This document shows positions 2,830-64,000 of a stretch of 64,000 nt of DNA, in pieces (within the stretch, counting starts at the first letter, position 1; each line of letters starts with the position of its first letter). The DNA is taken from positions 3,680,001 to 3,744,000 of the forward strand of contig CBDIID010000003.1 of NCBI GenBank assembly GCA_965279515.1. The letters are read 5' to 3'. Origin of the DNA: Turneriella sp. (GTDB lineage: Bacteria > Spirochaetota > Leptospiria > Turneriellales > Turneriellaceae). A program made the position numbers and the translations under genes. Under the pieces are notes generated by a model that saw only the letters and a program-made list of their open reading frames with translations, was not told the DNA's origin and ran no database searches.

Positions 2830-3732
2830 ATGAGGATATCCCCCGTTTGGGTTTTTGCGTTTTGCCTGCTTGCCGTTGCCGATTGCGGGGCGCTGCGGCG
2901 TAAGCCCGGCGCAGGCAAATATACAGACCATAAAATTACCGTCGCCGGGCGCGAGCGGGGTTATGTCCGCTATGAGCCCGCCGGCGCCGCGCCGCAAACG
3001 ATGCTGCTGCTTCTGCACGGCGGTGGCGGCAAGGCATCGGGTATGATTCGCCTCGCGCGCGATATGCCGGTGCTCGCTGATCAATACCATATTCTTCTTA
3101 TCTACCCTGAGGGTATCGGCGGGCACTGGAATGACGGCCGCGGCGATATCTCTGAGGCGGCGAAAACCAATGTCGACGATATCGGTTTTTTGCGCGCCCT
3201 TGCGGCCGAAGCCGGTTATCCGGGAAAAATCCGCCATGTATTCGCTGCAGGCATTTCAAACGGCGGCATGATGGCACAACGTATTGCCTGCGATATGCCC
3301 GATGTCGTTTCAGGTGTTGCCACGGTTGCCGCGAATTTACCCGTCGAACTCGAAAAGAAATGCCAGCCGGCAAAACCCGTGTCGGTGATGTTTATCGCCG
3401 GTATGGAAGATCCGCTCGTACCCTATGCGGGCGGGCCGGTCAAGGTACTCAGAAAAGAACGGGGGATGGTTCTCAGCATCGAAGACTCGCTCGCGTTCTG
3501 GAGCCGGCAATCGGCTTGTACTGCGAGCAGCGATGAGAATATGACGGCGTCGAGTTTTCTGCGGCGCTATAGCTGTTCTAAAGGTGGGCTGAAACTGATC
3601 GCCGTGAAAAACGGCGGGCATGCCTGGCCGGGCGGCATGCCATACCTGCCCGAGGCCATCATCGGCCGCACAAGCGATGAATTTTCTGCGTCAGAGAAAA
3701 TCATCGAATTTCTTGCGCACCGGAAAGATTGA
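2830..3732 (+). CDS. Alpha/beta-hydrolase esterase (LpqC/PHB-depolymerase-like)
   Basis: LLLHGGGG, GISNGGMM nucleophile elbow, GGHAWPG; start at MRISP signal peptide. Confidence 0.85.
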   Translation: MRISPVWVFAFCLLAVADCGALRRKPGAGKYTDHKITVAGRERGYVRYEPAGAAPQTMLLLLHGGGGKASGMIRLARDMPVLADQYHILLIYPEGIGGHWNDGRGDISEAAKTNVDDIGFLRALAAEAGYPGKIRHVFAAGISNGGMMAQRIACDMPDVVSGVATVAANLPVELEKKCQPAKPVSVMFIAGMEDPLVPYAGGPVKVLRKERGMVLSIEDSLAFWSRQSACTASSDENMTASSFLRRYSCSKGGLKLIAVKNGGHAWPGGMPYLPEAIIGRTSDEFSASEKIIEFLAHRKD

Positions 3733-53980: not shown

Positions 53981-54335
53981 AGATTTTCTCAGAAAAGACA
54001 GACGAAGGAAAAAAATGAGACACCCGGCAAAGCAGAAAGGCCTCGCAGAGCATCTGGATAAGTTAATTCATCCATTTGGCGCGTAGTTTGAGGTCAGAGC
54101 TTCTTTTACAGAAAAATTAACTTTTGTCAGTCTTTGAATCCATAAAAAAAATACCCATTTTGTCCGTCGCGAATAATCAGGGTTTCGCATTTCTCAGCAT
54201 GTCCTGTGGTGCCTGGCTACTCACCAGCGCATCTCTGCGCTGTATTTTAGCAATCTCTATCCATGGCATATCTGAGCTTCGTGCAGTGCCGGAAGCTCAT
54301 TGTTCAGAGAAAGAATCGTTTATTGCAATTTAAGG

Positions 54336-54365
54336 GAAAAGTGTTACTTATGTCGTGATAGTACC
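54336..54365. mobile_element. Solitary IS481 terminal repeat
   Basis: gaaaagtgttacttatgtcgtgatagtacc matches IS end 61808-61837 at 28/30. Confidence 0.85.
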
Positions 54366-54377
54366 CATCTTAATGGC

Positions 54378-54594
54378 GGCCAACGTGGATTTTACGCTGA
54401 CGTTTTTTGACGCTTGTGTCATTTATTCAATCTGTAAAGCCGATTTGCGTCAAAAAATGTGGTCGTAGCGGCTCGCGGCGACGCGCGAAAACACACCTCC
54501 CGGTGTGCGCGTCGTCCGCGATCTTTGCCGCGGAGACCCGAGCACGCGAGGAGCTACTGCACCGCAGCGGCGCAGCGCGTAAAATTTGTTGTCT
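54378..54594 (-). repeat. attC-like site A (217 bp)
   Basis: ggccAAC gtggattttacgctg ... cagcgcgtaaaattt GTTgtct. Confidence 0.85.
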
Positions 54595-54778
54595 GAAGTA
54601 ATTGCGCCTGTGAGCCCGGGCAAGGAGGCCCGGGCGAATAAAGGATAAGAGATTTTTCCATAAGAGGCCATCGGTTATCTTAACTTGCTACTTTTTGAAG
54701 TTAAACAGACTTTACACCTCGGATATCGTAGTTTTTGATGATTCTCTCGGTATAATTTCTTAGATAAGAATTGAATCC

Positions 54779-55255
54779 ATGGAAATTCCGGTTTTTCTGC
54801 CACTACCGAAAGGCATCACAGGTTTTTCGAACGCAGGCGAGCCTTTCGTAGGCTCTTTGGATAACAAATTCGTAAAATCCCTTGCCTTCTCCATAGATTA
54901 CTCCCAGCATTATAAGCTCTTTGATTTCAAGATGCCTCAGATCAGTGCTAATTATTTCAGGTTAACAATAGAGGATGGTCGGACAAATGATGTTTTCTCA
55001 ATTCTTATCAATGCTCACTATCCTTTTTATGCAGCTGTTACCAAGGAAAGTCAATGGATGAACTTGGTATTTATTGAAGCGCCAACTGCGATTCAAAATC
55101 TTTTCGCACCTCATTTTCAGTATCTTAGTCCCAAAGATTTGGGTCAAATTGTGCAGCCTGAACAGCTTATTTTATTAGGGGAATCAGAGCTGCAGCAAAT
55201 TACCAGTTGGAAGTCGGAACGCATTGGCGACATTGTTTTTAATGGATATGATTAA
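54779..55255 (+). CDS. Cassette 1 hypothetical protein (inverted)
   Basis: 158-aa AT-rich ORF between sites A and B. Confidence 0.75.
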   Translation: MEIPVFLPLPKGITGFSNAGEPFVGSLDNKFVKSLAFSIDYSQHYKLFDFKMPQISANYFRLTIEDGRTNDVFSILINAHYPFYAAVTKESQWMNLVFIEAPTAIQNLFAPHFQYLSPKDLGQIVQPEQLILLGESELQQITSWKSERIGDIVFNGYD

Positions 55256-55318
55256 TCGGCCAATGCCGGTCATAGCGTCGGCATGGATGCCGACGGGATA
55301 CAAAGGCGCAATTATTTC

Positions 55319-55537
55319 AGACAACGTGGAAAATACCCGAATTGCGCCCCCGCGGGTGTAAAGTGTAAATAATCACGGCTTTATGTGACTTTCGCGGGAG
55401 CGCATTTGCCCGAAGCGCCTCGCGGCAAAGCACAGAACAAGCGTCCCGCTTGTGCTTTGTCCGCGATCTTTGGCGCGCAGGGCCGAGCACGCGAGCCAAC
55501 GAAGTGCTCGCGGCGCAGCGGGTATTTTTTGTTAGCC
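55319..55537 (-). repeat. attC-like site B (219 bp)
   Basis: agacAAC gtggaaaatacccg ... cgggtatttttt GTTagcc. Confidence 0.85.
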
Positions 55538-55724
55538 GCCGTTACCGGATTCGCGCGGCTGGCGAGCAACCCGAAGGTCAGCGAGATACTGTAGTTCGAT
55601 ATTATTAGTAACCGAGGAGTTGTCGCCAGGATCAAAGGCGTAAGCAGCGAAATCTGGTTGTACTCTCTGATAACAAATCCTCTTTTTCTCCCCTTCGGGC
55701 GCGAAGGAGGTAATGGTGGCTAAC
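55531..55724. other. Cassette 2, 194 bp, no canonical gene
   Basis: Bounded by gttagccgccgttacc / ggtaatggtggctaac. Confidence 0.75.
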
Positions 55725-55934
55725 GTGGAAAATACCCGAATTGCGCCCGCGCGGGTGTAAAGTGTAAATAATCACGGTTTTATGCGACTTTCGTGGGAGC
55801 GCATTTGCCCGTAGCGCCTCGCGAGCCCGCCAATGCAGGCCCACTGGCCTGCGGGCGTAGCGATCTTCGGCGCGTAGGGCCGAGCACGCGACCCAGCGTA
55901 GCGGTCGCGGCGCAGCGGGTATTTTTTGTTAGCC
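55718..55934 (-). repeat. attC-like site C (217 bp)
   Basis: ggctAAC gtggaaaatacccg ... cgggtatttttt GTTagcc. Confidence 0.85.
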
Positions 55935-56121
55935 GCCGTTACCGGATTCGCGCGGCTGGCGAACAACCCGAAGGTCAGCTATATACTGTATTTCGATCTT
56001 ATTAGTCACCGAGGAGTTGTCGCCAGGATCAAAGGCGTAAGCAGCGAAATCTGGCTGTATTTTCTGATAAAAAATCCTCTTTTTCTCCCCTTCGGGCGCG
56101 AAGGAGGTAATGGTGGCTAAC
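55928..56121. other. Cassette 3, 194-bp paralogue of cassette 2
   Basis: Same length, 10 substitutions by manual alignment, no indels. Confidence 0.75.
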
Positions 56122-56331
56122 GTGGATTTTACGCTGACGTTTTTTGACGCTTGTGTCTTTTATTCATTCTGTAAAGCCGATTTGCGTCAAAAAATGTGGT
56201 CGTAGCGGCTCGCGGCGGCGCGCGAAAACACACCTCCCGGTGTGCGCGTCGTCCGCGATCTTTGCCGCGCAGACCCGAGCACGCGAGGAGCTACGGCACC
56301 GCAGCGGCGCAGCGCGTAAAATTTGTTGTCT
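56115..56331 (-). repeat. attC-like site D (217 bp, type A)
   Basis: Near-identical to sites A and H. Confidence 0.85.
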
Positions 56332-56545
56332 GACGTAGTTGCGCCTGTGAGCCCGGCATGGAGGCCGGGCGACTGCAGAAGAAGGCTGCCCAAAAAAATT
56401 CTGTTTGTCCCATGAAGAACAGGATTCACGCCTGAGACGGACAGTTGCTTCATTAGTTAAACGCGGCGCCAATTTCTTGGATGCTAAATGAACTAGTATC
56501 TCACCGCTTTCGGAAATATGTCATGCCGTTTTTTTGGCATAGGGA

Positions 56546-57085
56546 ATGGCAGTAATTCGTACAGTAAGGGCCATGGAAAGTAGAGTTAGAGTATTCTACA
56601 TCCGAAAAATGGCGATGAGGACATTTTTTATATATAGCCTCATCATTGCCTCGCGGCAAATCAGCGCTACTGGGGAGGGGATCGCTGGTATTACAACCGT
56701 TAATGCCGGTATAGAATTTCACACAGGCAAGTTAGGTCCGGTACCAACGGTCGGTCTGCTGGCGGGTTTCTACTCAATTGTCAGCGCGCACGTACATGCA
56801 AATTTATCCTACCGCCCCGCTGACGAAACTTGGCATACACGAGGTGGGTTTGGATTCGGCATTTTGAATTTCTTACTAAATCTGGACCTGACGTACCAAG
56901 CCGGTAATCAATCCTCCGCCGGATTTCTCTTTGGGGGATCCCTTTTTTGGGGGCTTCAGAGATTACATGATTTGCAAACTTTAGTCGAGGTGTTTTATGG
57001 CTATCAAACTAATTTTGCGGCAAGTACCGAGAATAGCTTGATCGGCGGTTTAAAAATTCATCTGAACCTTGGAAAGAAAATTTGA
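56546..57085 (+). CDS. Cassette 4 exported beta-strand-rich protein (inverted)
   Basis: Amphipathic strands; true start probably at MAMRTFF. Confidence 0.55.
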   Translation: MAVIRTVRAMESRVRVFYIRKMAMRTFFIYSLIIASRQISATGEGIAGITTVNAGIEFHTGKLGPVPTVGLLAGFYSIVSAHVHANLSYRPADETWHTRGGFGFGILNFLLNLDLTYQAGNQSSAGFLFGGSLFWGLQRLHDLQTLVEVFYGYQTNFAASTENSLIGGLKIHLNLGKKI

Positions 57086-57198
57086 TAACCATCCCGTGGG
57101 TTGATAATAGTTTCAACTAAACCGTGGCGAATAGCAATTTCTTAGATGTCAAAATTGATCTTTCGTGCACCTAGCAGCGTCTAATACAAAACAACACT

Positions 57199-57456
57199 AT
57201 GCGAAAATTCATAACGCCGCTATGTCTCATCTGTAGTATCGCCTTACTCGGCGACCTTGCTCACGCAAAACAAAGCAAGGGTGGATTGTGGGCTGGGCCT
57301 GAGACCTTACCGCCGGATCCTAAAAGGAAAAAGCCCGGAGAAGAATGCAAAGCCTCCGATGAATGCCAGCTCCATCATGAATGCAAGCAACAAGGCGATA
57401 AGGGTGTCTGCACCCCACCGCCGCCCTCAAGAATTCCACCCGGTGCCGTAACGTAG
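57199..57456 (+). CDS. Cassette 4 small secreted Cys-rich protein
   Basis: Signal peptide; C-x5-C-x5-C-x8-C, Pro-rich tail. Confidence 0.6.
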   Translation: MRKFITPLCLICSIALLGDLAHAKQSKGGLWAGPETLPPDPKRKKPGEECKASDECQLHHECKQQGDKGVCTPPPPSRIPPGAVT

Positions 57457-57988
57457 CCCGCCGGGCAGCGCGGCCCGGATATTCGCGATAGCATCGCCGG
57501 GATTCTCAAAAAACGTGCGCGTCACGCCATGGATTCGGGTATTGAGGCAAGTAGCGAAGCTATAAAAAACTGCTTCGAAAGCGTTTCTTTGTATGACATG
57601 CTGCCGACCCGGATTTATCACCGGGCCCGCGATGACGCTTGTTTCGGGCTGAAACAGTTTTTTTCTGCGCCGCCTACCGGTTTTGGGCGAAGGTTTCAAA
57701 AGCAGTTCTCTAACTTGCGGTTTCTGCCACCTGATTACGGCGGGTACGCGGGCAGGTTAGCAGACAAGCAGACCTTTCAGGTCTATCTGCGTTCGGTTGG
57801 AATGAATACAGCCCTTTAAAGCCATAAATATCCATAAAGAGTCGTTTTTGCCCATGAAAACAGGATTTACGCCTGAAAAGGTCCGTAGCCTAATCGTCGA
57901 AATGAGTATCAATTTCTTAGATACTTGGTCGCATTTAGTAGCTGGCGCCCGCATGGACGCGGGCGGGAAAAAACAGCGCAACTATGTC

Positions 57989-58210
57989 AGACAACGTGGA
58001 ATTTACACGAGGTCGATGGTGCGTCGCACAATAAAATTAGGCTTACTTGAAAAGCCGAGTATTAAGCACCATCGATCTGCCGAAGACCGCTCGTTGCGCC
58101 TGACCAAACAAACGTCCCGTTTGTCAGGCGTCAACGATCTTTGCGGTCGAGGCCGAGCACGCGAGGAGCCACGGCACCGCAGCGAGCGCAGCGTGTAAGT
58201 TTTGTTGTGC
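57989..58210 (-). repeat. attC-like site E (222 bp)
   Basis: agacAAC gtggaatttacacg ... cgtgtaagtttt GTTgtgc. Confidence 0.85.
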
Positions 58211-58236
58211 GACGTTGCCCCGCTGGAAAAAAATGC

Positions 58237-58596
58237 TCAAGCGTTTGCCGGTAGAACGGCTAATGTCGGAGCAGAGTAAATTGAGATAAATATGGCGTCT
58301 TCCGAAAAATCATTTATCGCGCCATGGACTTCGTCTTGTTCAGCAACCGCTATTTGCCCGGCAGAAATTATTGATTTCATTTGATTGCCGCGGAAATAGG
58401 TTAGCTGACCTTTAACCACAAGCCATGTATCTTGGCCGTCGGGATGGGTATGTACGGGAACTTCTTGCCCCGCTTTAACGCCCCAAATCGCCAAACTATT
58501 GGTTTTCGTAGTAGAAATGACGGTTACCGTCGCCTTGTCCTCTGAAAACCGTACCAATGCGGCCGTATTAAACAATCTAATTGCTTCTTTGCTCAT
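58237..58596 (-). CDS. Cassette 5 cupin-domain protein
   Basis: VHTHPDGQDTW...EVHGAIN cupin motifs. Confidence 0.85.
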   Translation of the reverse strand: MSKEAIRLFNTAALVRFSEDKATVTVISTTKTNSLAIWGVKAGQEVPVHTHPDGQDTWLVVKGQLTYFRGNQMKSIISAGQIAVAEQDEVHGAINDFSEDAIFISIYSAPTLAVLPANA

Positions 58597-58668
58597 GTGC
58601 CATTCGTCGCGGATGAAAGCATAATCTTACGGCAAACGCGCACGGAAATATATTCCGGGGCAATGTTC

Positions 58669-58930
58669 GCACAACGCGGGTTTTACGAGATTTGCGCCTC
58701 GCGGGTGTAAAGTGCTTTCAACGTGGAATTTACCTGAGGTTGAATGACGCTTCGTTCAACTTTGTGTTTTGTAAGGCCATGTTGCGTCACTCAATCTGCC
58801 CGAAGCGCCTCGCGGCAAAGCACAAACCAAGCGTCCCGCTTGTGCTTTGTCCGCGATCTTCTGGCGCGTAGGGCCGAGCACGCGAGGAGCCACGGCACCG
58901 GAGCGGCGCAGCAGGTAAATTTTGTTGTAC
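58669..58930 (-). repeat. 47-bp site stub plus attC-like site F (58716-58930)
   Basis: gcacAAC + B/C-type arm, then tttcAAC gtggaatttacctg ... caggtaaatttt GTTgtac. Confidence 0.8.
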
Positions 58931-58938
58931 GACGTTGT

Positions 58939-59610
58939 CTATAGGGCGGCCCATGGTTCCTGAAGCTGATTAACTTTGATAAGCTCGGTAAATGCTTTGG
59001 TATAATCTTTGAAAAGGCCGTTATGAGGAAAATCTTGCAGACTCAGATGGAAGCCAGTACCTGATTTGTACGCCCATTTTCTCAGCTTATAGAATGCTTG
59101 GGCGGCCTTAAAATTATTGAGTATTTTTTGGAAAACAAAGTTCTTCGTTTCTTCCATATCAAACATATCTTCTGCAAATGCGAGTATGACAAAGGCAGAC
59201 AATGGTTGCTTTTCGGTTTTTGATGAAGAACTAGGATTTAGAAAGTTCCAATAGAAAATCGGCGGATTCTCAGTTTCTGAACAGGTTTCCCAATGCGGCG
59301 CCCAAAGTTCCAAATGGCCAAAGCGTGAGTTAGCTGGATTTTCAGGTTTCGCGGGGGTGCCATAGGCCCATTTCAGAATGGATTTCTCGCTCAAATTTAA
59401 ACGACCCAAACCTTTCACTTTGGAATATTGGCCGTTCTTTACATACTCATAGGCCCTGATACCAAATGTCTGCTTCTTCAAAAGTAAAAACTCGTTGATT
59501 GCCGCCGCCACCGGACTTATGGCACGATAGTGCCATGGCATATTGTCGCCAGTTCTAATGAATATCGAATAAGTGTGATAGCTTCGGGTCCAAAAATTAA
59601 TCATAGACAA
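58939..59610 (-). CDS. Cassette 6 hypothetical protein
   Basis: 223-aa ORF filling the cassette end to end. Confidence 0.8.
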   Translation of the reverse strand: MSMINFWTRSYHTYSIFIRTGDNMPWHYRAISPVAAAINEFLLLKKQTFGIRAYEYVKNGQYSKVKGLGRLNLSEKSILKWAYGTPAKPENPANSRFGHLELWAPHWETCSETENPPIFYWNFLNPSSSSKTEKQPLSAFVILAFAEDMFDMEETKNFVFQKILNNFKAAQAFYKLRKWAYKSGTGFHLSLQDFPHNGLFKDYTKAFTELIKVNQLQEPWAAL

Positions 59611-59614
59611 TGTC

Positions 59615-59829
59615 GTACAACGTGGAATTTACCTGAGGTTGAGTGACGCTTCGTTCAACTTTGTATTCTGTAAAGCCATTTTTGCGTCACTCAATCTGCC
59701 CGAAGCGCCTCGCGGCAAAGCACAAAACAAGCGTCCCGCTTGTGCTTTGTCCGCGATTTTTGGCGCGTAGGGCCGAGCACGCGAGGAGCTACGGCACCGC
59801 AGCGGCGCAGCAGGTAAATTTTGTTGGGC
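59615..59829 (-). repeat. attC-like site G (215 bp)
   Basis: gtacAAC gtggaatttacctg ... caggtaaatttt GTTgggc; near-identical to F. Confidence 0.85.
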
Positions 59830-59845
59830 GAAGTAGCCTTTTCGG

Positions 59846-60487
59846 TTAAAGAGCTTTGCCAACAATGTAAGTGTCAATATCTACCTCTAGATTGAGCTTT
59901 GCCATACGATTGATTGTCTGAATATCAAAATGAATACCCGCATTGGCGCTTAGTGCCTGATGTCTGCATATTGAAATTTCTACCTCTGCCATCTTCGTTA
60001 AAGACAGAATATTTTCAGCATCTTTTTCAATCTCGTCTAATACTTTGCTTAATAGCGGCTTTAAGTCATAAGCCTCACTGTCTACAAATTCATAGCTTAC
60101 CAGACTAAATGTACGAGCTTTTCCGGTCCTTGGTTGCAAATCACCCTTTGACCAACCATCATGAGGCTTGAGCTTCGTAAACTTCGCAAGTTCAGCATAA
60201 GTGTGATTTTCTGAGATTACGTTCAAAGAACACTTGTGGCCGTTTTCGATCATGATCCAGGAGATCTCCAAAGATTCTTTTCGAACAAACACGACAAAGA
60301 AGAATCGTTCATCTAAAACACGAAAATAGACCGCCACACGGTCGGCTTCAGTTTCTTCATCAACCCTCTCAACTTCATAACCCAAGTCACCTTCAACCAG
60401 CTCCATAACAGACAAATACTGTTCTGTAAGTGCAAATGTCGGGTTCTTAATTTCTTCTACTGCTTTCTGAATGTATTTTTCTGACAT
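59846..60487 (-). CDS. Cassette 7 DUF4279-like protein
   Basis: Acidic 213 aa; WSKGD and GIHFD...LNLEVDIDTY. Confidence 0.65.
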   Translation of the reverse strand: MSEKYIQKAVEEIKNPTFALTEQYLSVMELVEGDLGYEVERVDEETEADRVAVYFRVLDERFFFVVFVRKESLEISWIMIENGHKCSLNVISENHTYAELAKFTKLKPHDGWSKGDLQPRTGKARTFSLVSYEFVDSEAYDLKPLLSKVLDEIEKDAENILSLTKMAEVEISICRHQALSANAGIHFDIQTINRMAKLNLEVDIDTYIVGKAL

Positions 60488-60502
60488 AAAAAATATCTTA
60501 AG

Positions 60503-61837
60503 GGTACAATATCAGAACATCGGTAACGAAAAGTCATCACGACATCGGTAACAGTTCTGCCTCAGGCTTTGCCGTGGTTTCCTCCTGATTTGGTGTAAAC
60601 AAATAATTGTTCCGATCGATGTAGCCCAATAGCAGGCTACCGAAGTAGACGTCGATGCGCATGTCGGCGATAAACCGGAGCCCGATCGGGTAGCCGTTAA
60701 AAGAATTGCCGATAAATATCCGGTGCTGCTTGTAGTTGGTGTAACCGCGGTCATTTACGATGCGTACGATGCAATCCTCAGGGTAGGCGGGTAGTACGTC
60801 GCCAGTATACGGAATTTCAGATGGTAGGTAGAACTCTGATGGCGTCCTCATGCCCAGGGCTTCATGCGGTCGCACATTGTTGAAGTCTTCGCGCCACTGA
60901 TCAAACGAAATCTGGTGAAGCTTTAGATCACCGCGAATGCGCCCCTGCAGTTCCGTGCGGATGTCTCTGTGCATACGCTCATGGCCACCATTCTGGGCTG
61001 GCTTTCCCGGATCAATGCGGTCCAGAGAAATTCCCAAGGACAGCCACCAGACTGACAATTTTGTCAGGCCAAAGAGGCCCCACGATGATGCGAAAGGAGT
61101 TCCGTTGTCAGAGCGAATAATTTCCGGCAGACCATAGCGTTTGAAGAGTCTGGCAAAGTGTTGTTTTACATTGGAAATATTGCCCTTTTCCAGTATCTGT
61201 ATCGACAGGATGTACTTACTGTACTCATCGCGAACTGTCAGAGGTTCGCATTTCTCTGCATGTGCAGTATACCACCACCCCTTGAAATCAACCGTCCATA
61301 TGTGATTGGGATGCGTCGCCTTTTCGCGAAGCATCAGCCTCTCTCCGGTTCTGCGGCGCTTCTTTCCTCTTGGCCTTGTCAGACCAGAGCGCGCCAGAAG
61401 GCGATCGACTGTAGGCACTGAAATATCGCCTTTGCGCTCGGGGTAAAGCCTGCAGAAGACCGCATAGATCTTCTTGGCTCCCCAGCGAGGCCTGTTATTC
61501 TTTATGCGAATAATGTCGCAGATTGTTTCTTCGTCAGTGCGGTTCGGATTGCCTCCTGGTTTTCGTGACAACTCCGCCAATCCAGCTAAGCCTTTTTCCA
61601 GAAACCTTGCCTTCCACTTGTACCCTGTCTTGGTGCTGATGCCAAACTCGCGGCACAGCTCTGTGAAACTCTCTACGCCCTCCAGGGCGCGAAAGACAAA
61701 AGATCTTTTCTCTTCCATTTTGGTAACCTCTTTCCACGGCATTTGAGCCCCCTGCCGAAGGCAGGCAAAAGCTCTTTGCGAAGCAAAGTGTTACCGATGT
61801 CTTGATAGAAATGTGTTACCTATGTCGTGATAGTACC
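60503..61837 (-). mobile_element. IS481-family insertion sequence
   Basis: Ends GGTAC...GTACC with repeated acatcggtaac motifs; TAAG(G) on both flanks. Confidence 0.85.
60537..61742 (-). CDS. IS481-family transposase (rve DDE)
   Basis: MPWKE, HTH, WTVDFKG, IRSDNG, QNGGHER, NNVRPHEAL. Confidence 0.92.
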   Translation of the reverse strand: MPWKEVTKMEEKRSFVFRALEGVESFTELCREFGISTKTGYKWKARFLEKGLAGLAELSRKPGGNPNRTDEETICDIIRIKNNRPRWGAKKIYAVFCRLYPERKGDISVPTVDRLLARSGLTRPRGKKRRRTGERLMLREKATHPNHIWTVDFKGWWYTAHAEKCEPLTVRDEYSKYILSIQILEKGNISNVKQHFARLFKRYGLPEIIRSDNGTPFASSWGLFGLTKLSVWWLSLGISLDRIDPGKPAQNGGHERMHRDIRTELQGRIRGDLKLHQISFDQWREDFNNVRPHEALGMRTPSEFYLPSEIPYTGDVLPAYPEDCIVRIVNDRGYTNYKQHRIFIGNSFNGYPIGLRFIADMRIDVYFGSLLLGYIDRNNYLFTPNQEETTAKPEAELLPMS

Positions 61838-61849
61838 TAAGGCTATTTC

Positions 61850-62067
61850 GCCCAACGTGGATTTTAGGCTGACGTTTTTTGACGCTTGTGTCATTTATTC
61901 AATCTGTAAAGCCGATTTGCGTCAAAAAATGTGGTCGTAGCGGCTCGCGGCGACGCGCGAAAACACACCTCCCGGTGTGCGCGTCGTCCGCGATCTTTGT
62001 CGCGGAGACCCGAGCACGCGAGGAGCTACGGCACCGCAGCGAGCGCAGCGCGTAAAATTTGTTGTCT
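61850..62067 (-). repeat. attC-like site H (218 bp, type A)
   Basis: gcccAAC gtggattttaggctg ... cagcgcgtaaaattt GTTgtct. Confidence 0.85.
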
Positions 62068-62153
62068 GAAGTAATTGCGCCTGTGAGCGCGGCTAGGAGG
62101 GCCGCGCGAATTCTGAGTTTAATTGCCTATTACTGGTCATTTCGCGTCGGCAT

Positions 62154-63137
62154 CTACCGGTGTGAGTCTAAGGCGGCGCGGGCTGACTTCTCTTGGTTTG
62201 CGATGTAATCCATAGGATGAAATTCATGGGGCGCCATGGCTTTTTCCTGCATGATCAGCCGATACCCATAGCAGAGCATAGGCGAGTCACCATCGACCAG
62301 ACCGATAGGTCCTTCTGTTTTCAGAGCTTTATTTTCCAGGCTGTAGATAATATCGGTTTCACTGCGTGCTTCGCGTATGATAAGTTTAGCTTCATTGCGC
62401 TTCCAAGTACACGACCTATCAACGCGGTTTCCATTATAGGTCAAGAGGGAAACGAGCCGGCATCTGCCATTTCTTTCTATATTCAGATAACGGTGTTCGG
62501 TTGAATTGCTCTCATCTAAATAAAGGCCAATAAATCCGTCGGTAAACGTCTGAAGGTATCGCGATCTGAGCCTGTCGCCCAGCTCTGCGGATATTGGAAA
62601 ATCTTCAAATGAATCACCTGCCTGTCGGAAGAATTTGATACCCGAGAGAGCCGTATCGGACCATTTCGCGCCTTTATAGACGGAAACGATTCTCAAGCTG
62701 ACCTGTTTACCCTTCAGAGTATCTTTCAAATCTATATTTTGTCTGCCCGCGGTGTCCTTAAGCGTATAGACAGTCTCGCTGCCACCTTCCGCAGAGAATC
62801 CGATTTCTTTAACGCGATTATTGAGCGGGAAAAATTTCGCATCGGAGTAACCATTCCAGACAGCTATCCGATGAATTTTTGCTTTCTTATCAAATAAAAA
62901 GGTGACGGTCTCGCCGATGCCGTCGTCGGCCTTGCCTTCAACCCAACTTGCTTGGGCGCCTTCACGAAGCAGCCACTCTGCACGGTATTTACCTGTCTCA
63001 GGTTCATGCTCGCTTGAGGCTTGTATTCCTGTGACTAAGGGAGGCATCTTTTCACCACAGCTAGGCAAGAAGACGAAAAGCATAAAAAAGGAACCGAATC
63101 GTAGCATAGTCACCCTCCAATCCAACGGGTGACCCAT
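62154..63137 (-). CDS. Cassette 8 lipoprotein with discoidin/NADase-type glycan-binding domain
   Basis: LPSC lipobox; SWVEG..DGIGE, VWNGY...NNRVK, VYKGAKWSDT. Confidence 0.7.
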   Translation of the reverse strand: MGHPLDWRVTMLRFGSFFMLFVFLPSCGEKMPPLVTGIQASSEHEPETGKYRAEWLLREGAQASWVEGKADDGIGETVTFLFDKKAKIHRIAVWNGYSDAKFFPLNNRVKEIGFSAEGGSETVYTLKDTAGRQNIDLKDTLKGKQVSLRIVSVYKGAKWSDTALSGIKFFRQAGDSFEDFPISAELGDRLRSRYLQTFTDGFIGLYLDESNSTEHRYLNIERNGRCRLVSLLTYNGNRVDRSCTWKRNEAKLIIREARSETDIIYSLENKALKTEGPIGLVDGDSPMLCYGYRLIMQEKAMAPHEFHPMDYIANQEKSARAALDSHR

Positions 63138-63292
63138 TACCCAAGGAGATAATCAGTCAAACATTAAACTGAACCGCCACATTATTAAATATGGCTTTTG
63201 AAGCGGGTAACTACCCTTAAACTGGTCATTGTGTCACGATAGCTTCACCGCGCCGACAGGAGGTCGGCGGATATCAAAGGCGCAATTATTTC

Positions 63293-63517
63293 AGACAACG
63301 CGGAATTTACCTGAGGTCGATAGTGCGTCGCGTAATAAATGCAGTCTTCACTCGAAAGCTGCGTTTTGATGCACTATCGATCTGCCGCAGGTCGCCTCGT
63401 TGCGCCCGACCAAACAAACGTCCTGTTTGTCGGGCGTCAACGACTCTTAAGCGACCGGAGGCCGAGGACACGAGCCAACGAAGTGCTCGCGCCCGCAGCA
63501 GGTAAATTTTGTTCTCT
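63293..63517 (-). repeat. attC-like site I (225 bp)
   Basis: agacAAC gcggaatttacctg ... caggtaaatttt GTTctct. Confidence 0.85.
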
Positions 63518-63677
63518 GACGTAGTTGCACTTATGAGCCCGGGCATGGAGGGCCGGGCGACCATTACTAAAATGCTGTTGTTCAAAAGACTAAAAAAAGC
63601 TTTTTTCAAGATTCTGGGTTAAATTAGCTAAGGATGAAAGTCCTTGACGCATCTAATTATTCATTCCAGAGGTCTAT

Positions 63678-63917
63678 ATGAGTATCAATGAATATGTGGT
63701 TATTGACCCTGATATCTGTAACGGCAAACCGACCGTAGCCGGTACTCGAATAACTGTCCAAACGGTTCTTGAATTCTTGGCCGTAGGGGAATCGATTGAG
63801 ACCATCGTAAAGAATTATCCTAGGCTTACGACCGTTAGTATTCAAGCATGTATCCAATTTGCCGCAGACATGGCGGGACACGAATACAGCATGCATAAAA
63901 TTGCACACGCTGGATGA
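63678..63917 (+). CDS. DUF433 antitoxin
   Basis: IDPDICNGKPTVAGTRITV...YPRL. Confidence 0.9.
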   Translation: MSINEYVVIDPDICNGKPTVAGTRITVQTVLEFLAVGESIETIVKNYPRLTTVSIQACIQFAADMAGHEYSMHKIAHAG

Positions 63918-64000
63918 AAATACTTATCGATGAAAATCTACCCGAAGACATTTCTTGCTGGAAGTCTGATGATTTTATCCATGCCAAGGCATTAGGTGCA
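63914..64000 (+). CDS. DUF5615 PIN-like toxin (truncated by window)
   Basis: ATGA overlap with DUF433; MKILIDENLP. Confidence 0.8.
   Translation, partial: MKILIDENLPEDISCWKSDDFIHAKALGA

Follow-up and report, generated by a model that had tools for sequence, protein, structure and literature searches.

A probable integron-like cassette platform with long folded sites and an Xer/IntI-like recombinase in Turneriella

Integrons are the textbook gene-capture system and are recognised by an integrase-specific domain together with short attC sites, which classically have RYYYAAC/GTTRRRY cores, inner L boxes and a length of about 57-141 bp. The right-hand end of the 64,000-nucleotide stretch of Turneriella sp. 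DNA analysed here (the window) raises the question of whether gene capture of the integron type can operate without these features, and with which enzyme. An earlier note, made from the letters of the window alone, had described nine related imperfect palindromes alternating with unrelated cargo and proposed a divergent cassette-shuffling system. That overall reading is supported and was largely right; on sequence evidence, the system is real, integron-like and probably active. The window holds what is, in our judgement, likely to be the distal end of a sedentary chromosomal integron-like cassette platform run by an Xer/IntI-like recombinase on folded sites.

Nine long sites and their cargo

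All nine palindromes were located as full sites between positions 54382 and 63513 of the window. Each opens with NNNNAAC-G(T/C)GGA and closes with TTT-GTTNNNN (9/9), and the inner repeats quoted in the earlier note (tttacctg/caggtaaa and aaaatacccg/cgggtatttt) are found in the window sites. The sites are oversized as described, although the 215-225 bp given for them counts a few flanking bases: from AAC to GTT they measure 207-217 nt. In order along the window, the sites, their cargo and the associated mobile elements are as follows.

54338..54366, solo end of a decayed IS481-like element, with the sequence of the IS terminal repeat at 61785-61837
54382..54590, minus strand, site 1 (209 nt from AAC to GTT; inner-stem type TTTTACGC/GCGTAAAA)
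54779..55255, plus strand, cargo ORF of 158 aa, no Pfam family
55323..55533, minus strand, site 2 (211 nt; type AAATACCCG/CGGGTATTT)
55534-55721, 188-nt cargo after site 2, no convincing ORF
55722..55930, minus strand, site 3 (209 nt; type shared with site 2, AAATACCCG/CGGGTATTT)
55931-56118, second copy of the 188-nt cargo, after site 3
56119..56327, minus strand, site 4 (209 nt)
56546..57819, plus strand, cargo of cassette 4, three ORFs, none with a Pfam family over cut-off
56546-57085, plus strand, cassette 4 ORF of 179 aa
57199-57456, plus strand, cassette 4 ORF of 85 aa, its start signal-peptide/lipoprotein-like
57529-57819, plus strand, cassette 4 ORF of 96 aa
57993..58206, minus strand, site 5 (214 nt)
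58237..58596, minus strand, cupin protein of 119 aa (Pfam Cupin_2, E 3.9e-10)
58673..58719, minus strand, site stump (AAC and ~44 nt of site 2-type core), joined to site 6 without a gap
58720..58926, minus strand, site 6 (207 nt; type ATTTACCTG/CAGGTAAAT)
58939..59610, minus strand, cargo ORF of 223 aa, no Pfam family
59619..59825, minus strand, site 7 (207 nt)
59846..60487, minus strand, DUF4279 protein of 213 aa (Pfam DUF4279, E 2.5e-12)
60503..61837, minus strand, IS481-like insertion sequence with inverted ends (Pfam rve, rve_3, LZ_Tnp_IS481)
60537-61742, minus strand, IS481-like transposase of 401 aa
61854..62063, minus strand, site 8 (210 nt)
62154..63137, minus strand, lipoprotein-like ORF of 327 aa with an F5/8 type C (NADase_transloc) domain (PF25302, E 2.3e-25)
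63297..63513, minus strand, site 9 (217 nt)
63678-63917, plus strand, DUF433 protein
63914 onward, plus strand, DUF5615/PIN-like ORF (112 aa in the genome), overlapping the DUF433 ORF

Cassette 54384-55324 consists of site 1 and the 158-aa cargo ORF, and the stump at 58673..58719 is the leftover of a deleted cassette. Pfam upholds the cargo identities suggested previously, namely Cupin_2, DUF4279, the F5/8-type-C lipoprotein-like ORF and the DUF433 and DUF5615/PIN-like ORFs, which are a toxin-antitoxin-like pair, alongside unknowns. The cargo had also been called AT-richer than the sites, in agreement with GC fractions of 0.467 versus 0.561 in the window and 0.448 versus 0.584 over all arrays. 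Array cargo as a whole lies 8 GC points under the genome and is made up mostly of unknown proteins and toxin-antitoxin-like pairs, an extensive and unexplored store of accessory genes.

The IS481-like element is inserted in cassette 7, within the outer-stem arm, and its right end falls 17 nt short of the site 8 AAC. All copies of this element in the genome (8/8) lie inside arrays, in a single orientation and at a single relative position in the outer-stem arm. Mobile elements that target attC are known, such as the IS1111-attC elements, and the placement seen here resembles that of IS1111-attC elements and group IIC-attC introns; unlike IS1111-attC elements, the array IS belongs to a different family, with an rve/IS481-type transposase. 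The array's left edge, distal to the integrase, is the solo IS481-like end at 54338..54366, which truncates the cargo before site 1. More IS-like remnants lie at ~54167-54207.

Arrays, folds and mobile cassettes

Searching the genome with a profile of the nine window sites gave 151 matches (best E-value 1e-62), of which 142 were not in the training set. Two arrays hold 129 of the 151, all on one strand, and together occupy 3.05% of the genome; the remaining 22 lie outside them in small groups.

C3:90771-169922, array 1, 79 kb
C3:3734376-3804594, array 2, 70 kb, including the window

The next site beyond site 9 begins 316 nt past the window edge, and the window is the left, integrase-distal end of the 70-kb array. 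This distribution bears out a cassette array, not dispersed repeats. A same-genus genome carries ~220 sites over ~212 kb, and to our knowledge these arrays are among the largest seen anywhere. Across the order, 20 of 34 genomes match the site model. In other phyla the site grammar adjoins related recombinases at 11 of 80 loci, in a cross-phylum scan with a noticeable background (15 control pairs versus 61); arrays beside related recombinases are found at Patescibacteria, Bacillota, Bacteroidota and Spirochaetota loci.

The AAC/GTT cores are kept in 316 of 318 sites. The departure from the purine/pyrimidine consensus that had been noticed in the window is general: GTTRRRY fits 44/318 right boxes and RYYYAAC 35/318 left boxes. 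Core to core, sites in the host genome have a median length of 208-209 nt (range 186-218 nt), and they thus fall outside the classical attC definition in both consensus and size. An Rfam search of the sites gave no family matches.

The proposed fold pairs 92.8% of cells (78.9 +/- 1.1 in shuffles), and both partners have changed in 29 of its 62 pairs, a number that 0/500 shuffles attained. Chance is ruled out for the sites, because nine of them yield a profile with 151 matches and because fold and covariation exceed those of shuffles. Conservation and covariation are both seen in the R and L stems and in an asymmetric bubble with 5 nt facing 3 nt. The flank, or outer, stem has a median of 16 nt compared with 5 in controls and carries a G·T mispair at position 8 in 243 of 257 cassettes; on the opposite strand these wobbles are C·A mismatches. 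When sites were circularised, the plus strand gave the more stable fold in 8/8. No extrahelical bases of the classical type were identified in the sites, and their clearest asymmetry is this fixed G·T. The two halves of the outer stem are at opposite cassette ends and can therefore meet only after excision.

Cassettes are discrete units that occur at varied array positions, with borders within the AAC triplet, which reads GTT on the minus strand. Homologous cargo forms 69 pairs in 13 families, in none of which the neighbours are homologous. The proposal that each site goes with the cargo to its right is borne out by duplicated cargo. Of the 13 families, 12 show the higher conservation in the left-hand site and none in the right-hand site, with median identities of 93.6% for left sites, 74.2% for right sites and 71.5% for random pairs. 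Both borders of the duplicates fall at AAC triplets, also in pairs from within the genome that are 100% identical. Since duplicated cassettes end at AAC and carry the left site, they are read on the minus strand, as had been predicted; the longest ORF is on that strand in 167 of 257 cargos (plus in 75, absent in 15), and ORFs filling at least 60% of the cargo number 128 minus versus 32 plus. About a third of cargo ORFs are in the 'wrong' orientation. The AAC/GTT cores, exchange in the GTT triplet and a site 3' of the cargo are those of classical cassettes. Copies that are 100% identical, site included, occupy different positions within and between both arrays with exact AAC borders, a pattern that suggests recent exchange. 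Turnover between species is near total, with 4 cross-genome cargo pairs among the 257 cargos.

The attI-like end and its recombinase

At 4/4 array ends examined, an attI-like core, GTyTATTnnCTGmATkGCG, directly follows the last AAC. In G016 and G007 the AAC of the last cassette leads into this conserved core ~170 nt before the start codon of a recombinase gene, the layout of a classical attI, in which the insertion site at the array head lies beside the integrase gene. In same-genus genomes, the gene adjoining the attI-like end encodes an Xer/IntI-like tyrosine recombinase of 366-430 aa. It is transcribed away from that end; G016, G007, G013, G011, G015, G014 and G010 agree in this position and in its relative orientation, and the arrays that it abuts comprise 14 to ~220 long sites.

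In the host genome, both arrays end on the right with the common attI-like core and have no recombinase gene beside it; neither a recombinase nor a remnant lies within several kb of either array, and no recombinase lies within 0.8 Mb. The attI-like end of the window array is ~61 kb right of the window edge, and its flank leads straight into a P450 gene. An orthologue of the relatives' recombinase is present as an intact ORF at C3:2926096-2927193, ~0.8 Mb from the array. The expectation that attI and integrase would lie beyond the right edge or act in trans is thus borne out, with attI to the right, the relatives' recombinase just past it and the host's copy far off. Rearrangement has probably parted both arrays from the gene, and the enzyme would therefore act in trans. 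Array decay is possible, because no recombinase lies within that distance and eight IS copies have accumulated in the arrays.

All catalytic residues are conserved, host copy included, but the IntI-specific insertion that the earlier note expected is missing: the recombinase has 24 residues where VchIntIA (2A3V) has 65, and its model has no helix at residues 272-292. It thus lacks the additional domain around patch III of a classical IntI. Scores against TIGR02249 are 161-192 bits with a cut-off of 265, and none of 20 family genomes, near-complete single-contig ones included, exceeds that cut-off. Xer and IntI models give the enzyme similar scores, its best NCBIfam match being the XerA/integron-integrase model. 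An extra N-terminal domain of ~95 aa is predicted as three helices, and the C-terminal tail is IntI-like (...SPL). The host genome has only four tyrosine recombinases, with separate XerC/XerD-like genes at ~1.40 and ~4.83 Mb. Xer/dif chromosome-dimer resolution, which has one dif site of ~28 bp near the terminus and an enzyme unlinked to cassette arrays, does not fit the platform enzyme, given the arrays of 14 to ~220 sites that it abuts and the other Xer-type genes present.

Mechanism, alternatives and wider meaning

Read on the minus strand, a cassette consists of cargo, usually one gene, followed by a ~209-nt recombination site. The recombinase would cut and join sites, excising cassettes between two of them and inserting circular ones either into attI or into another site. 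Once a cassette is free, its site would form a hairpin of ~240 nt, with an outer stem of GTT/AAC and ~16 bp bearing the position-8 mispair and an interior formed by the bubble (GTGGA opposite TTT), a 9-11 bp inner stem and three covarying internal hairpins. Folding energies and analogy make the window plus strand (the bottom strand in integron terms) the likely reactive one, and on the same basis we infer a single-strand mechanism. The G·T/C·A asymmetry could replace extrahelical bases and the IntI-specific helix in strand selection.

The platform resembles sedentary chromosomal integrons such as the Vibrio superintegron with its VCR attC sites in its very large one-strand arrays of mostly single-gene, co-oriented cassettes. 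It also shares with Vibrio-type integrons an imperfect palindrome with AAC/GTT cores that closes each cassette, an exchange point in the GTT/AAC triplet, attI at one end with, in relatives, a divergently transcribed tyrosine recombinase, toxin-antitoxin-like cassettes and near-total content turnover between species. Unlike them, it has a recombinase below the IntI model cut-off and without the specific insertion, sites of 186-218 nt between cores instead of 57-141 bp that do not keep RYYYAAC/GTTRRRY, an outer stem reaching ~16 bp into the cassette with a fixed G·T, and a conserved three-hairpin branch in place of a free variable loop. Alignment with XerA runs the full length of the catalytic and core-binding domains and shows no insertion, and platform recombinases are close to archaeal XerA; unlike Xer proteins (XerA, or XerC/D at dif), the enzyme carries the ~95-aa N-terminal domain and the ...SPL tail and is linked to arrays of 209-nt hairpin sites, not to a single 28-bp dif. 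The platform has its integron layout outside Proteobacteria in common with the archaeal and other integrons of Ghaly et al. 2022 (PMC9668308), where the recombinases retained are only those spanning the IntI-specific domain, which the platform enzyme lacks. IntegronFinder's IntI call, as described in PMC4889954, likewise requires the IntI-specific region. In the host genome only, the arrays would pass operationally as CALINs (at least two attC sites with no integrase nearby, attC clusters lacking an integron integrase as described by Cury et al. 2016, PMC4889954); unlike CALINs, they are complete platforms in relatives and retain the attI-like end.

That last likeness underlies the view that the host arrays are fossils, CALIN-like relics that have not recombined since parting from their recombinase gene. 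Neither attI-like end has an adjoining recombinase or remnant, the flank of one runs into the P450 gene, and the arrays contain eight IS copies and a site stump; we nevertheless consider this unlikely, given the intact recombinase ORF with all its catalytic residues and the identical, exactly bordered cassettes at different positions. A REP/MITE-like or regulatory intergenic repeat spread by transposition is hardly credible: the 22 matches in small groups outside the arrays would suit it, but the hallmark of scattered single copies on either strand is contradicted by the 129 in two one-strand arrays, by borders that are cassette-specific and complementary across the cargo, by joint movement of the site with one flanking cargo and by the empty Rfam result.

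The enzyme itself raises two further alternatives. The segment that it lacks is treated as necessary for attC recombination in PMC9668308 and PMC8138268, which speaks against assigning the platform to it. A classical integron whose true IntI is unassembled, lost or too divergent, with the Xer-like neighbour a bystander such as a dimer-resolution enzyme, would account for the integron-like layout, attI, AAC/GTT cores and cassette behaviour and for the near-equal Xer and IntI scores. This is very improbable in view of the 0/20 TIGR02249 result, the host's separate XerC/XerD-like genes and the recurrence of the recombinase family at the same array end in at least seven genus genomes and beside arrays in other phyla. 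The sites might instead act as duplexes or cruciforms in an ordinary Xer-type two-strand exchange, their palindromes serving, for example, transcription termination or insulation; the helix associated with attC recombination on single strands (PMC7790495) is missing from the enzyme, and GC-rich hairpins could work as terminators. We regard this as quite unlikely, as covariation maintains pairing over ~200 nt, the outer-stem partners meet only post-excision and the strand asymmetry would be meaningless in duplex DNA.

The platform passes the behavioural tests of an integron (mobile cassettes, GTT-triplet exchange, attI and polarity) and fails both identifying features. We found no paper in the literature describing it. 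Chances appear about even that an Xer-like family without the IntI-specific helix runs true integron-type capture, with strand choice encoded in the DNA by the position-8 G·T and the bubble and not read by the protein from extrahelical bases, and that it is widespread. If the linked recombinase is the enzyme, the claimed need for the extra helix on folded sites must be qualified and genome surveys need wider models; as a rule of strand choice, the position-8 G·T is simple and testable. If the wider reading is true, surveys keyed to the IntI domain and short attC sites overlook much of the cassette pool of prokaryotes, arrays of ~220 cassettes among it, and integron function would either predate the acquisition of the IntI helix or have arisen a second time.

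Palindromic sites and the arrays they form

Nine full sites and one stump lie between positions 54382 and 63513 of the window, which corresponds to C3:3680001-3744000 of the genome, as read from the sequence together with repeat tables. Each full site is a long imperfect palindrome of 207-217 nt from AAC to GTT, opening with 4-7 variable bases, AAC and G(T/C)GGA and closing with TTT, GTT and further variable bases. Several sequence types occur, distinguished by paired changes in the inner stem (TTTTACGC/GCGTAAAA, AAATACCCG/CGGGTATTT, ATTTACCTG/CAGGTAAAT and ATTTACACG/CGTGTAAAT). Alignment of the nine sequences yields a consensus fold of 62 pairs in 8 helices, made up of an outer stem, an asymmetric bubble, an inner stem and three internal hairpins. 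Across the nine sites 92.8% of the cells in this fold are paired, compared with 78.9 +/- 1.1 in shuffles and 33-46% when partners are slid, and 29 of the 62 pairs carry changes on both sides, a count reached by none of 500 shuffles. Rfam assigned no family at the sites, its two weak matches (E above 0.2) both falling within cargo.

Searched with a profile built from the nine sites, the 4.9-Mb genome gives 151 matches, and 129 of them belong to two arrays, all on the plus strand, that together span 3.05% of the genome:

C3:90771-169922, plus strand, array 1, 76 matches
C3:3734376-3804594, plus strand, window array, 53 matches

The other 22 matches, some of which are partial, occur on either strand, singly or up to three together (contig C3 at about 1909, 2148, 2805-2807, 2881-2882, 2929, 3059-3060, 3496-3497, 3630-3634 and 4811-4812 kb); they may be cassettes at secondary sites, or array fragments relocated by rearrangement. 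The sites described in the earlier note are thus real and far beyond chance, and they are not mostly dispersed singletons, the outcome set beforehand as contrary to an array.

On the left, distal side, both arrays terminate in IS ends. All eight genome copies of an IS481-like element (C3:89513, 97820, 136718, 143096, 156647, 3740510, 3748946 and 3764966) sit in or at the two arrays in a single orientation, with the right end about 17-22 nt ahead of an AAC, within the outer-stem arm of a cassette. By its placement, the element appears to behave like one targeting recombination sites, and in this it resembles the IS1111-attC elements, which target the recombination sites of classical integrons.

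AAC and GTT are both retained in 316 of 318 sites. Classical attC sites have RYYYAAC and GTTRRRY boxes, but here only 35/318 left boxes and 44/318 right boxes conform, in agreement with the earlier remark that the purine/pyrimidine consensus is often broken; the sites instead prolong the outer stem into the cassette. Their bubble consists of GTGGA, GCGGA or GTTGG facing TTT or CTT.

The mobile unit and its cargo

The sequence just after the GTT of each site is reverse-complementary to the sequence just before the AAC of the next site, so that complementary arms flank a single cargo. Ungapped arm length, measured in 257 cassettes of five genomes, has a median of 16 nt (quartiles 15-18); the median is 5 when partners are shuffled, and likewise 5 when the two flanks of a single site are compared. 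Arm complementarity by itself fits a crossover at either box. Homologous cargos, comprising 69 pairs in 13 families with homologous neighbouring cargo in none, are more informative: the left sites of duplicated cargos share a median identity of 93.6%, the right sites 74.2% and random pairs 71.5%, and the better-conserved site is the left one in 12 of the 13 families and the right one in none. Near-identical copies start directly after AAC and finish with the next AAC. On the plus strand the unit is therefore a site core plus the cargo to its right, with exchange within AAC. A candidate unit of cargo plus the site at its right-hand end, with the plus strand canonical, was overturned by this duplicated-cassette test.

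A classical cassette consists of cargo and then site, with exchange in GTT, and the unit found here matches it when read on the minus strand. The longest ORF per cargo lies on the minus strand in 167 of the 257 cargos and on the plus strand in 75, and is absent (under 60 aa) in 15; ORFs covering at least 60% of the cargo number 128 on the minus strand versus 32 on the plus strand. Both the pairing of each site with the cargo on its right and the minus-strand reading of the cassettes, as proposed in the earlier note, are borne out by these data.

Position 5 after GTT, a G in 317/318 sites, pairs with C. At position 8, G occurs in 315/318 and T stands opposite in 310/318, and the resulting G·T is present in 243 of the 257 cassettes. 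Built in silico as a circle, the entire element folds as a hairpin of ~240 nt, and in 8 of 8 circularised cases the plus strand folds more stably than the minus, by 2-11 kcal/mol. Because G·T wobbles turn into C·A mismatches on the opposite strand, one strand is marked by the DNA itself. The marked strand is the 'bottom' strand in integron terms, which is the strand that classical integrases recombine. We propose that the sites would recombine as folded single strands, with the strand chosen by these marks in the DNA, and that the G·T asymmetry would take over the job of protein-read extrahelical bases.

In the window, the stretches between sites measure 188-2028 nt and are unrelated, and with a GC of 0.467 against 0.561 for the sites the cargo is indeed AT-richer, as had been noticed. 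The contents are as follows:

Cupin
DUF4279 protein
F5/8-type-C lipoprotein-like protein
DUF433 and DUF5615/PIN-like pair
Several ORFs without family
55534-55721 and 55931-56118, a 188-nt stretch present twice, without a convincing ORF
60503-61837, IS481-like element in the cargo region
54589-54636, 55275-55325, 56326-56366, 57945-57995, 62062-62110, 63249-63299 and 63512-63560, cassette ends with GC-rich hairpins

The 188-nt cargo is the commonest cassette, with 11 copies in the two arrays, every one behind a AAATACCCG-type site; a small RNA, a very short ORF and a selfish filler cassette are candidate explanations for it. In one cassette family the outer-stem arms measure 22-25 nt, and a GC-rich hairpin sits just within each cargo end. 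Several of its members in the window bear plus-strand ('wrong-way') ORFs, and the hairpins may be terminators that insulate them. One cassette (window 62063-63134) is covered by a contig from the wastewater metagenome run X5 that shows 4 differences over 1072 nt; several cassettes nearby have cargos that this run leaves uncovered. These contig data hint, weakly, that single cassettes are shared with environmental relatives.

Array heads and the recombinase

TIGR02249, the IntI profile, detected no integrase above its cut-off in this genome (best piece 93 bits versus 265) or in the family genomes searched, and this genome has only four tyrosine recombinases. BLAST located the sites in 12 of 20 same-family genomes, and a covariance model matched 20 of 34 genomes of the order. 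In better-assembled relatives of the same genus, the array extends up to a recombinase gene of 366-430 aa:

G016, C1:1322360-1371724, 49 sites, recombinase gene start 0.69 kb further
G007, C1:3456708-3668871 (212 kb), 220 matches with 219 on one strand, recombinase gene start 0.44 kb beyond
G013, 19 matches, array reaching the recombinase
G011, 14 matches, array reaching the recombinase

The recombinase occupies the same relative position in the shorter contigs of G015, G014 and G010. The gene is always at the GTT-side end of the array and is transcribed away from it, which, with the array taken in its minus-strand reading, is the classical divergent layout of integrons.

The final cassette in G016 and in G007 ends in AAC, after which comes GTTTATTCCCTGAATGGCGGGAAAG, about 170 nt upstream of the start codon. 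Traced by border complementarity, the right end of both arrays in this genome is AAC plus GTCTATTA(G/T)CTG(A/C)ATTGCG. The core GTyTATTnnCTGmATkGCG, common to all four array ends examined, is read as a putative attI. The window array has this attI-like core at C3:3805399, about 61 kb past the right edge of the window. On its far side comes a P450 gene, and neither a recombinase gene nor a remnant of one is present there. A tblastn search beside the two array ends returned no recombinase remnants, and a fuzzy search of this genome for the relatives' attI motifs gave only noise. An intact orthologue of the recombinase is encoded at C3:2926096-2927193, behind a hydrolase gene. Since this orthologue is remote and its own promoter-proximal stretch resembles those of G016 and G007, the platform was split by rearrangement between attI and gene. 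The expectation that attI and integrase would lie beyond the right edge or act in trans agrees with this arrangement.

A direct repeat, GTTCTATTTnTGTTCTATATT, immediately precedes the start codon of the recombinase in this genome (stretch L012:5194-5260, on C3), in G016 and in G007 (L013:1170-1215 and L014), the remaining upstream region being different; it may be an operator. In G007 the three recombinase-nearest cassettes (L106 / L014, C1:3456708-3457764) are tandem copies of a unit of about 459 bp, with a shorter site that is missing the first inner hairpin.

The recombinase retains the catalytic Arg-Lys-His-Arg-His-Tyr set in 30 of 30 aligned sequences. Its best curated model is NF040815 (XerA/integron-integrase, cut-off 220), with 222 bits for G016 and 196 for the copy in this genome, while TIGR02249 (cut-off 265) gives 192 and 161 bits, respectively. 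The protein aligns end to end with archaeal XerA (4A8E; E 4e-38) and in two pieces with the Vibrio integron integrase (2A3V; E 2.4e-34), and at the place of the IntI insertion it has 24 residues versus 65 in IntI. The predicted structure (mean pLDDT 88.4) has no helix in this 24-residue stretch and carries a three-helix N-terminal domain (residues 1-62) found in neither Xer nor IntI. The nearest solved fold is an integron integrase (E 1.3e-15), with XerA second, and the C-terminal ...SPL of the recombinase recurs in the IntI alignment. Overall, the enzyme resembles IntI in its neighbourhood, its tail and its fold rank, and Xer in being without the defining insertion; the earlier expectation of a recombinase bearing the IntI-specific insertion thus failed. 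The strong comparative linkage with the arrays suggests that this recombinase is the enzyme acting on the sites.

The fourth tyrosine recombinase of this genome (301 aa; L001:1456-2361, that is C3:2781225-2782130) has 31% identity to the array-linked family, the same ...SPL tail and a 12-residue insertion where the IntI insertion sits. A cluster of three sites at C3:2805270-2807816 lies about 23 kb away.

Activity, distribution and relation to integrons

The remote recombinase gene, the eight IS copies within the arrays and the presence of a site stump would all suit arrays that are now fossils. However, the recombinase gene is intact, and cassette copies that are 100% identical, site included, occur at different places within and between both arrays, and we consider it unlikely that the arrays of this genome are fossils. 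The contigs of the four public runs compared break inside repeats and are silent on circles either way; apparent 'joints' in them are uninformative because other cassettes share the border sequence. Only 4 cross-genome pairs of homologous cargo exist among the 257 cargos of the five genomes. Cassette content is therefore renewed almost entirely between species, as is likewise the case in known chromosomal integrons.

A scan with the recombinase alignment, using one genome per species, yielded 583 relatives, of which the best 80, with identity of at most 49%, were examined. Defining repeat edges by BLAST proved too crude and missed an array plain by eye, and was replaced by a scan of flanks with a control. 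The 80 loci contained 61 GTT/AAC pairs that were spaced by 150-6000 nt, had <=3 mismatches across 14 flank positions and carried a position-8 G opposite T, versus 15 in a reversed-not-complemented control. Same-strand runs adjoin the recombinase gene in 11 of the 80 loci:

Two Patescibacteria
A Spirochaetes MAG
Saccharibacillus
A Clostridia MAG and two further Firmicutes/Bacillota MAGs
Two Flavobacterium
Sediminibacterium and Flavihumibacter

By eye, three of these 11 loci have sites of 130-220 nt that share the AAC...GTT frame, the chain complementarity and the mispair at position 8. The array lies either 5' of the recombinase gene, as in this lineage, or 3' of it, and its polarity towards the gene's side is identical in both layouts.

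Published work holds the IntI-specific insertion to be defining and necessary (PMC9668308, PMC8138268, PMC4889954), and its helix has been linked to single-strand attC recombination (PMC7790495). A classification paper states that the insertion 'is not fully conserved' in an integron-like subgroup, whose members are given no function there (PMC8138268). In supplementary data of an IntegronFinder survey, a Turneriella parva genome has NA for CALIN, In0 and complete integron (PMC4889954). Our search of the full-text literature, with supplements covered partly, found no description of these arrays, of sites of such length or of an insertion-less recombinase running cassette arrays. The duplicated cargos, the ORF bias and the attI-like ends support the integron-like interpretation of the earlier note, including its unusual minus-strand reading. 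The platform fails both features that define integrons, and by behaviour and layout it is an integron.
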